From Candidatus Heimdallarchaeota archaeon (GTDB taxonomy: Archaea > Asgardarchaeota > Heimdallarchaeia > Heimdallarchaeales > Heimdallarchaeaceae): DNA of 64,000 nt. This document shows, one piece after another, positions 2,959 through 48,077 of the stretch (its first letter is position 1; each line of letters starts with the position of its first letter). The notes beneath the pieces were generated by a model. That model was not told where the DNA came from. It saw only the letters and a program-made list of their open reading frames with translations, and searched no databases. The DNA is taken from positions 160,001-224,000 of the forward strand of contig JAHLWR010000002.1 in the NCBI GenBank assembly GCA_019057815.1. The letters are read 5' to 3'. The position numbers and the translations under genes are program-made.

Positions 2959-3126
2959 TTACGATTCCTCAACAAGCTATAGCCATTTAATTACTTCAAT
3001 TTTTGATAAATATCTATCTTTATAATGGTTTGTTTTCTAACCTATTTTCATTTATCAAATGTAGAATTTAGTATTTAATCCCGTGTAAAAATTAATTAAA
3101 TGAGATAAAAAGTAAAAGGAAAGAAC

Positions 3127-11328: not shown

Positions 11329-11438
11329 GGGCCATTGGCTCAGCTAGGTAGAGCAGCGGACTCTTAAACAAGATTAGCTGAAAATCATCTCGTAGAGTAA
11401 TCCGTCGGTCGCCGGTTCAAATCCGGCATGGCTCGCCA
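11329..11438 (+). tRNA. tRNA-Lys(CTT) with 33-nt intron (11367-11399) at position 37/38; CCA encoded
   Basis: Acceptor GGGCCAT/ATGGCTC, D-arm GCTC/GAGC, anticodon stem GCGGA/TCCGT, T-arm GCCGG-TTCAAAT-CCGGC; bulge-helix-bulge with central CTCT/AGAG helix. Confidence 0.95.
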
Positions 11439-47551: not shown

Positions 47552-47627
47552 TGGTGGGCAAAGCAGGAATTGAACCTGCGACCTACTCCGTGTGAGGGAG
47601 TTGTCATAGCCACTAGACCACATGCCC
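47552..47627 (-). tRNA. tRNA-Val(CAC), CCA encoded
   Basis: Anticodon arm ACTCC-CT-CAC-AC-GGAGT, T-arm GCAGG-TTCAATT-CCTGC. Confidence 0.95.
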
Positions 47628-47690
47628 GTAATTCAATCAGATATAGCATCCAAAGCTATATATTTTTTCTGTTTGGTAATTTAGAAAAAG

Positions 47691-47922
47691 CAATATAATG
47701 CCCCTGAGGTTAACACACTGCTTCATTTTTTGGGTTAACCCCACATCTACTAGTTGAGCTCCTCAGGAGCATATGTTGTCTACCAGGGTTGACCTAATAT
47801 CATTGTATGGAATGCTTCATTCCACTCAATAAGGAGCCCGTATGGTAGCCTGTAGCCTTTCTTTTTGCACTTTTCTTCATTGTTGGCCAAAGCCTACTAT
47901 GAAAAGTCCTCGATAAAAGGCA
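47691..47922 (-). ncRNA. Three-hairpin box H/ACA pseudouridylation guide RNA
   Basis: Three stem-pocket-stem-K-turn hairpins ending in ACA (47851-53), ACA (47774-76) and AUA (47694-96); hairpin 1 pocket complementary to 23S PTC UUUGC-UN-CCUCGAU. Confidence 0.8.
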
Positions 47923-48077
47923 AAATAACATTAATCTCAAATATCTTTAATGTTTTGTTTTTTAACATTAACAAAAAACAACCCTTATTCTTAATTATAA
48001 TGTCACGTCATACATGTTTAATTATAAAGTAATTTTTAAAATAAGATTGTAAAAAGGGAAAAGAAAAAGGGAATAAA

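Follow-up and report, generated by a model that had tools for sequence, protein, structure and literature searches.

The minus strand of a 64,000-nucleotide (nt) stretch of a Candidatus Heimdallarchaeota archaeon genome (assembly GCA_019057815.1, contig JAHLWR010000002.1, positions 160,001 to 224,000; hereafter the window, in whose numbering positions are given) very probably carries a stand-alone gene for a box H/ACA guide small RNA (sRNA) of approximately 228 nt, a divergent orthologue of the three-hairpin guides Pab40, Pf7 and Afu4 (Rfam family HgcG). As read from the sequence, the RNA extends from window position 47921 to approximately 47694 and comprises three consecutive hairpins, each built from a lower stem, an asymmetric internal loop forming the pocket, an upper stem with a kink-turn, and an ANA box; the boxes that follow hairpins 1, 2 and 3 are ACA, ACA and AUA, respectively (Table 1). 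GA opposite AAUGA, the signature of a kink-turn, is found in all three upper stems, with the exception that hairpin 1 of this genome has UA. The minimum free energy fold consists of the same three hairpins in an AT-rich RNA (37% GC), with a z-score of -3.6 and none of 200 shuffled sequences folding equally well. All three hairpins had been proposed in a preliminary description of this DNA, which gave the stems, pocket strands and box distances correctly for hairpins 1 and 2.

The structure is borne out by comparison with related genomes. BLAST retrieved full-length orthologues with 70-99% identity from all 24 sampled genomes of the same family, and 22 complete ones were assembled into an alignment (A1) on which a hand-drawn H/ACA structure of 58 pairs in nine helices was tested. 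Pairing is possible in 92.2% of the cells, compared with 40-53% when the 3′ partners are slid by one to three columns, and 28 of the 58 pairs show compensatory changes on both sides, compared with 3-10 in the slid controls; the observed pairing and covariation values were reached by none of 500 shuffles. The compensatory covariation on which the preliminary description had made its reading depend is thus present, and RNAalifold independently predicts all three hairpins. In contrast to the variable stems, the pocket words (U)AUCGAGGA, GCAA, ACGGGCUC, CAACCC, GCUCA and GUUA are invariant or nearly so, and the bases of the hairpin 1 3′ pocket strand that are unable to pair with ribosomal RNA (rRNA) drift (GCAAAAA, GCAAUUA, GCAAGGA; an AUA variant occurs as well). 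Invariance of the pocket words combined with drift of the non-pairing pocket bases constitutes the signature of a trans-acting guide. The position of the hairpin 1 box is occupied by ACA, AAA or AUA, that is by ANA, in all orthologues. GA opposite (N)NU-GA is likewise kept, with few or no exceptions, in hairpins 2 and 3, and also in the majority of hairpin 1 orthologues; the distance from the upper-stem base to the distal G.A pair amounts to 10 in hairpin 1, 9 in hairpin 2 and, depending on the register, 8-9 in hairpin 3, and the kink-turn spacing given in the literature is 9-10 bases (PMC7075261).

A permissive Rfam scan returned a single full-length match, HgcG (RF00064; E 3.6e-13, model positions 1-276), which aligns all three hairpins in order. 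The Infernal/Rfam check suggested at the outset succeeded with respect to extent and significance but not with respect to score, since 51.9 bits fall below the Rfam gathering cut-off of 77 bits. This shortfall counts against the family assignment, as does the hairpin 1 kink-turn, where U.A takes the place of the second sheared G.A pair present in most orthologues. The HgcG model, however, matched none of 14 control genomes, four of them archaea of other orders, and failure to reach the cut-off accordingly bears on automated annotation rather than on homology. Together with covariation and with complementarity to the predicted targets, the match upholds the earlier classification as an archaeal Cbf5/L7Ae-type three-hairpin H/ACA guide.

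Members of this family are well described. Muller et al. (2008) characterized Pab40 as an H/ACA sRNA with three motifs, of which motif 1 produces Ψ2588, a modification both detected and reconstituted in vitro, and motif 3 acts on U2016 in stem-loop 69, whereas motif 2 varies between species, with Pf7 and Afu4 expected to act at the equivalent of P. abyssi 2678 (PMC2377435). The RNA described here resembles Pab40, Pf7, Pho40 and Afu4 of Thermococcales and Archaeoglobus in having three hairpins in the same order, kink-turns and ANA boxes. It shares with Pab40 motif 1 a CGAGG...GC pocket for the site at E. coli position 2496 (hairpin 1), with Pab40 motif 3 a GUUA 3′ guide for helix 69 at E. coli 1915 (hairpin 3), and with Pf7 stem II an AACCC in the 3′ guide of hairpin 2. 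Unlike these relatives, it lacks the stem-loop inserted into the hairpin 2 5′ guide, which reads ACGGGCU instead of ...GGUC, and it has a 12-bp lower stem in hairpin 3 with the AUA shifted to 18 nt. Two hairpins also have counterparts in haloarchaea. Grosjean et al. (2008, Additional file 8) aligned two hairpins of haloarchaea with stems II and III of Pf7, namely HP1 with the 3′ guide (G)AACCC(G) drawn on 23S Ψ2621 and HP2 with the 3′ guide (C)GUUA drawn on Ψ1956/1958 (PMC2584109), and Majumder et al. (2020) showed for Haloferax, in vivo and in vitro, that stem-loop 1 (SL1) of sR-h45 makes Ψ2605 and SL2 makes Ψ1940/1942 (PMC7075261). In contrast to the RNA described here, sR-h45 consists of two hairpins separated by a 56-nt spacer and is devoid of a hairpin 1 counterpart.

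Targets were predicted by scanning every U of the organism's own rRNA, which is encoded by one 16S gene and one 23S gene (3375 nt), for bipartite complementarity to the pockets; E. coli numbering was derived from pairwise alignment to rrlH. This comparison, proposed in the preliminary description, placed a U in the pocket for hairpins 1 and 3, and the sites found independently in this way agree with the published Pab40 targets 2588 and 2016.

For hairpin 1, the most likely target predicted from complementarity is U2934 of the organism's 23S rRNA. The 5′ strand UAUCGAGG can form 8 base pairs (bp), one of them G.U, with CCUCGAUG, and GCAA can form 4 bp with UUGC, leaving U2934-A2935 unpaired. 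No other site attains 3 or more bp on both sides, and a total of 12 bp was reached by none of 300 shuffled guides. U2934 aligns with E. coli 2496 in the central loop of domain V beside helix 89, as had been anticipated, and corresponds to P. abyssi 2588 by virtue of a constant regional offset of 92 (2549/2457, 2672/2580, 2697/2605). The target sequence itself had been misread: where UUUGC... was expected, the cognate 23S rRNA has CUUGCUACCUCGAUG, and GCAA alone of the 3′ pocket strand pairs.

Hairpin 3, for which no target had been offered previously, is predicted to act on U2015 in the loop of helix 69 (E. coli 1915 by alignment). Complementarity of AGCUCA to UGAGCU and of GUUA to UAAC (6+4 bp) leaves U2015-A2016 free, a result equalled by 10 of 300 shuffled guides. 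The 5′ guide matches the helix 69 strand of its own family; this strand does not differ among the 15 family genomes for which a 23S rRNA was assembled. Like SL2 of sR-h45, hairpin 3 applies GUUA to the helix 69 UAAC. SL2, however, leaves UNUN free and gives rise to two pseudouridines, whereas in hairpin 3 A47755 pairs with U1917, so that U1915 alone would be presented. The 5′ guide differs between lineages, being AGCUCA here, GGUUAG in Pyrococcus and GAGGGUUU in haloarchaea. In families f5 and f8 it reads AAGAGA and pairs 4 nt further down helix 69, which does not amount to a clean test of guide-target covariation.

An activity of hairpin 3 is challenged by its box and its upper stem. The AUA box is 18 nt away from the first base of the 3′ guide that pairs, rather than 14-16 nt, and AUU occupies the canonical 15-nt position; the upper stem contains, in the register of the family, two mismatches (U x U and A x A) that are confined to this genome and its sister G001. 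In Pyrococcus, active guides have box spacings of 14-15 nt and interactions with 17-nt spacing were inactive (PMC2377435). Hairpin 3 might hence be decaying or inactive in this genus, its structure being kept while box and upper stem are no longer competent for guiding. We consider this rather unlikely. Both guides, AGCUCA and GUUA, remain intact and can base-pair with helix 69 as it reads in this family, an alternative 5-bp register is available for the upper stem, and in Haloferax an increase of the spacing from 15 to 18 nt merely halved activity, while box-mutated guides were still active at up to 17 nt (PMC7075261). Given this tolerance of 18-nt spacing and of box loss, hairpin 3 is probably active, perhaps weakly. 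The position of its box also varies among relatives: in five orthologues AUA directly follows GGGGC (15-16 nt), and one (G005) has ACA.

The target of hairpin 2 is less readily assigned. Its lower stem is supported by compensatory changes in seven of eight pairs, and since orthologues extend this stem by 2 bp, the second ACA, not the one in UGGUAG-ACA, is taken as the functional box. A weak upper stem was likewise noted for Pab40 motif 2 (PMC2377435). Throughout the family ACGGGCUC and CAACCC do not vary, and other Asgard families retain them too. Homology with Pf7 stem II and with SL1 of Haloferax sR-h45 points to U3024 (E. coli 2586), situated between helices 90 and 93, as the most likely target. 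In this model AACCC would form 5 bp with GGGUU directly 5′ of the U, and on the other side C-[G.A]-GGCA would pair with G-A-CCGU after an unpaired A (5 bp and one G.A mismatch), one or two guide bases beside the upper stem remaining unpaired. The site is identical in every genome examined that carries hairpin 2. A comparable arrangement operates in Haloferax, where 5+3 bp suffice for SL1 to make Ψ2605 within UUUA, a C at the top of the 3′ guide strand staying unpaired (PMC7075261); hairpin 2 shares with it the AACCC on GGGUU, the U in UUUA and the unpaired top base of the 3′ guide, whereas the 5′ guide is GUC (3 bp) in sR-h45 and C-G(mismatch)-GGCA here.

Several results weigh against U3024. 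A canonical search of 16S and 23S rRNA with hairpin 2 gave at best 7 bp, equalled by 193 of 300 shuffled guides, and both candidate sites discussed here require unpaired spacer bases or a mismatch. Pairing energy ranks U3024 sixth among 155 sites (-10.8 kcal/mol) and favours U2992 (E. coli 2554) in the A loop (helix 92), which comes first both by energy (-16.6 kcal/mol) and by base pairs. Hairpin 2 could conceivably guide modification of this U2992 in place of, or besides, U2586, a reading that we regard as a serious alternative yet the less probable one. CAACCC would pair with GGGUUG and GGGC with GCCC (6+4 bp, reached by 14 of 300 shuffled guides), with U-A-C free. The 5′ guide of families f5 and f9, (G)ACGGGC, perfectly matches the A-loop GCCCGU(U) (-13.7 and -14.5 kcal/mol), which would explain the invariance of ACGGGC. 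Furthermore, a single H/ACA motif may serve up to three sites, and the rule that 'UN' is unpaired is not strict (PMC2377435). On the other hand, the A-loop model leaves three target bases unpaired; the A loop of f5 and f9 reads GGGCUG, so that the 3′ guide helix, the more important of the two, would contain an A x C mismatch for which the guide does not compensate; and in three genomes (G011, G012, G018) the U beside CAACCC is replaced by a G that could pair with the proposed A-loop target U. Given that the homologous stems of Pyrococcus and haloarchaea are assigned to U2586 and that the 3′ helix is conserved, U3024 is favoured over the A loop. Presence and absence of the RNA do not decide between the two: families f2-f4 have C at 2586 and no match to a covariance model of the RNA (R1), but family f7 likewise has no match despite having U2586, and genome G178, in which U2586 is present, has an RNA of two hairpins.

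The segment near the 3′ end of 23S rRNA that was originally put forward for hairpin 2 (GUUGAUAGG) is very unlikely to be its target: the exact words GGGUUGA and AGCCCG are absent from the rRNA searched, and the UUGA[UA]GAGC found at U3300 attains only 4+4 bp, if the first upper-stem base serves as guide, a total of 8 bp that arises by chance and leaves the invariant CCC and ACGGG unexplained.

The protein partners of such a guide are encoded in the genome, all with scores above the curated cut-offs: Cbf5 (TIGR00425, 419.6 bits), Nop10 (PF04135, 57.3), Gar1 (PF04410, 40.9) and two genes of the L7Ae family (PF01248, 91.5 and 66.6 bits). The Cbf5 gene shares 95% identity with its counterpart in a metagenome-assembled genome labelled Candidatus Heimdallarchaeota archaeon, confirming that the organism belongs to the Asgard archaea. 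By analogy with the family, each hairpin would bind L7Ae at its kink-turn and Cbf5-Nop10-Gar1 at the lower stem and ANA box. The two pocket strands would then pair with the 23S rRNA flanking a uridine, which Cbf5 would isomerise to pseudouridine.

Evidence from RNA libraries that the small RNA is stable is weak but consistent. Four contigs from two studies, 115-166 nt in length and 99-100% identical, lie wholly within 47738-47915, and none maps to the flanks of the sRNA or to the neighbouring valine transfer RNA (tRNA-Val) gene; 47691-47737 is uncovered and run X1 yielded no contig, neither of which is informative. As assembled contigs, these matches give neither strand nor ends nor abundance, and they might derive from DNA carry-over. 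One of them, the 115-nt contig of run X3, is a fold-back chimera in which plus-strand 47831-47915 is followed by minus-strand 47860-47831, with the junction atop the hairpin 1 lower stem; it probably represents a snap-back artefact of complementary DNA (cDNA) synthesis on a structured RNA.

A role other than guiding, be it as a structured leader or co-transcript of tRNA-Val, as an RNA binding proteins for some other purpose, or simply as overlapping small open reading frames, is most improbable. The tRNA-Val neighbourhood is conserved and two overlapping reading frames of 46 and 55 amino acids (aa) exist (47800-47940 on the minus and 47865-48032 on the plus strand), but the substitutions follow RNA pairing rather than codons, the invariant single-stranded words match rRNA flanking known pseudouridine sites, and tRNA-Val has a conserved upstream element of its own and is separated from the sRNA by an oligo-U run.

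Table 1. Features of the H/ACA guide RNA locus (window positions)
Feature	Position	Strand	Remarks
Promoter-like element: A-rich BRE-like (B recognition element) run and TATA-like box UUAAAGAUAU	47941-47960	-	Centred ~25 nt upstream of G47921
Hairpin 1	47855-47921	-	Helices 1-3 covary; pocket invariant in 22 orthologues
Hairpin 1 lower stem GCCUUU(U)/(G)AAAGGC	47915-47921 / 47855-47861	-	
Hairpin 1 5′ guide AUCGAGG	47908-47914	-	Pocket strand (U)AUCGAGG
Hairpin 1 upper stem ACUUUUC/GAAAAGU	47901-47907 / 47869-47875	-	
Hairpin 1 kink-turn A-UA / AAU-GA-A		-	Within upper stem
Hairpin 1 3′ guide GCAA	47865-47868	-	Pocket strand GCAAAAA(G)
Hairpin 1 ACA box (U-ACA)	47851-47853	-	15 nt after upper stem
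Hairpin 2	47778-47850	-	Seven of eight lower-stem pairs with compensatory changes
Hairpin 2 lower stem GGCUACCA/UGGUAGAC, 8 bp	47843-47850 / 47778-47785	-	Core CUACCA/UGGUAG, extended by 2 bp according to orthologues
Hairpin 2 5′ guide UACGGGCU	47835-47842	-	
Hairpin 2 weak upper stem	47828-47834 / 47793-47799	-	One U x U
Hairpin 2 kink-turn GA / ACAAU-GA		-	Within upper stem
Hairpin 2 3′ guide UCAACCC	47786-47792	-	
Hairpin 2 ACA box	47774-47776	-	16 nt after upper stem; 14 nt from A47790 (U2586 model), 15 nt from C47791 (A-loop model)
Hairpin 3	47698-47772	-	Helices 7-9 supported by covariation
Hairpin 3 lower stem AUGCUCCUGAGG/CCUCAGGGGCAU, 12 bp	47761-47772 / 47698-47709	-	
Hairpin 3 5′ guide AGCUCA	47755-47760	-	
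Hairpin 3 upper-stem kink-turn GA / AAU-GA	47746-47747 / 47723-47727	-	
Hairpin 3 3′ guide GUUA	47711-47714	-	
Hairpin 3 AUA box (U-AUA)	47694-47696	-	Sole ANA after hairpin 3
3′ tail U-AUA-UUG followed by CUUUUUCU	47683-47697	-	Sequence reading
tRNA-Val(CAC), separate from the sRNA	47552-47627	-	Kept downstream of the sRNA in relatives; preceded by a conserved A-rich element of its own

The gene appears to be equipped with its own signals. An upstream BRE/TATA-like element had been suggested near 47945-47955, and an A-rich, TATA-like element is indeed found in this region; its position is kept across orthologues (consensus GACAAAAAAcUUCAAGAUA) while the flanks vary, and transcription would start near G47921. 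The oligo-U run 3′ of the sRNA is likely an archaeal terminator, placing the predicted end of the transcript there. Synteny of the sRNA and tRNA-Val is maintained throughout the family. Between the oligo-U run and tRNA-Val, an A-rich element (CAAACAGAAAAAAUAUAUAG, within 47630-47682) is conserved in orthologues and probably represents the promoter of tRNA-Val itself. The locus is flanked by a gene for a Toprim-domain protein upstream and, past tRNA-Val, by a C5 DNA methylase gene.

Model R1 detects the RNA in 28 of 30 genomes of its own family, in 19 of 22 of family f5 and in both genomes of f6, and no three-hairpin guide in families f2 and f3; genome G040 of f3 has a hairpin 1 homologue followed by just one more hairpin. 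Sub-threshold matches to HgcG occur in 13 of 151 sampled Asgard genomes and extend to six more Asgard families, while a pattern search with TTWTCGAGGAC...GCAA outside families f1 and f5 returned mostly chance matches. Since not one of the 151 genomes passes the HgcG gathering cut-off, standard annotation misses this RNA; model R1 or alignment A1 could seed the annotation of Asgard copies. The literature searched contained no paper describing H/ACA sRNAs in Asgard archaea. With the present analysis, a complete Pab40-type guide RNA is assigned to the Heimdall group and, by way of the sub-threshold matches, to several other Asgard families.

The three predicted pseudouridines would lie at functional sites of the ribosome, namely in helix 69, in the central loop of the peptidyl-transferase centre, and in the strand between helices 90 and 93 or the A loop. 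Eukaryotic box H/ACA small nucleolar RNAs (snoRNAs) share the mode of action and serve equivalent sites in 25S/28S rRNA: the P. abyssi sites 2016 and 2588 are conserved pseudouridines in eukaryotic large rRNA (PMC2377435), and the helix 69 pair is guided by U19 in humans and snR191 in yeast (PMC2584109). Because helix 69 and 2496 (and 2586 in some eukaryotes) are modified in eukaryotes too, the dependence of these sites on guides probably predates eukaryotes. Eukaryotic guides, however, have two hairpins and an H box (ANANNA) and lack such a requirement for an L7Ae kink-turn, whereas three hairpins, kink-turns and plain ANA boxes constitute the archaeal layout. The implied novelty of this RNA is overstated, and its suggested bearing on the origin of snoRNAs is not sustained: the RNA belongs, as a divergent member, to the HgcG/Pab40/Pf7/Afu4 family already described, has an ordinary archaeal architecture, and adds nothing to the picture of snoRNA origins beyond what Pyrococcus provides.

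A BLAST comparison of the sRNA with its own genome also uncovered a match within an array of clustered regularly interspaced short palindromic repeats (CRISPR) on contig C20. In a 41-nt spacer (C20:12460-12500), bases 1-22 correspond to window 47716-47695, the 3′ end of the sRNA in sense orientation, and bases 20-41 to window 47772-47793, an antisense stretch from immediately upstream of hairpin 3, with an overlap of 3 nt. It is the one spacer among 39 that matches the genome elsewhere and lies near the degenerate (old) end of the array. The strand switch falls at the base of hairpin 3, as expected from self-primed copying of an sRNA ending in ...CAUUAU-3′. No copy of the spacer was found in sister genome G001, and the junction was matched by neither viral nor metagenome contigs. 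A type III system (C20:280-12350 and C46:73000-85958) is flanked by the arrays and comprises a Cas10-HD protein, several RAMPs, Cas6 and a stand-alone Cas1; contig C46, the end of which joins the start of C20 through the array, further encodes Csm6 and a 972-aa SAVED-TIR protein. No RVT_1 domain was found in the genome. It is tempting to view the spacer as a fossil of a self-primed cDNA of the guide RNA, a speculation we hold to be improbable; the substrate may have been RNA or fold-back DNA. If the spacer did originate from cDNA, it would mark the mature 3′ end of the sRNA and would point to the uptake of RNA-derived spacers by an Asgard type III system without a recognisable reverse transcriptase.

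Several peculiarities of the rRNA genes were encountered in passing. The 16S (C23:18421-19894, minus strand) and 23S (C23:20801-24175, plus strand) genes are arranged head to head approximately 900 bp apart and, lying on opposite strands, cannot share one precursor. The 23S rRNA carries a 324-nt insertion in domain V (2547-2870), placed by alignment after E. coli 2452 near the peptidyl-transferase centre; relatives break at the same point with unrelated sequence of different length, and some have a further insertion of about 150 nt near position 3038 of the 23S rRNA of this genome. These insertions look like introns or fast-evolving insertions. The helix 69 loop of families f2 and f3, which belong to the same order, reads UAACCAUGA or UAACCUUGA, with C rather than U at the E. 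coli 1915 position, and it is these families which, together with f4, also have C at 2586. Position 2993 of the A loop (E. coli 2555) carries A rather than U in this genome, in sister G001, in G011, G012 and G018 (genus g3), in three genomes of f7 and in one of f9. Other relatives retain the U; the substitution seems to have occurred on several occasions. Elsewhere in the window, a 107-nt match to the Rfam tRNA model (11329-11435, 53.4 bits) presumably represents an intron-containing tRNA gene.

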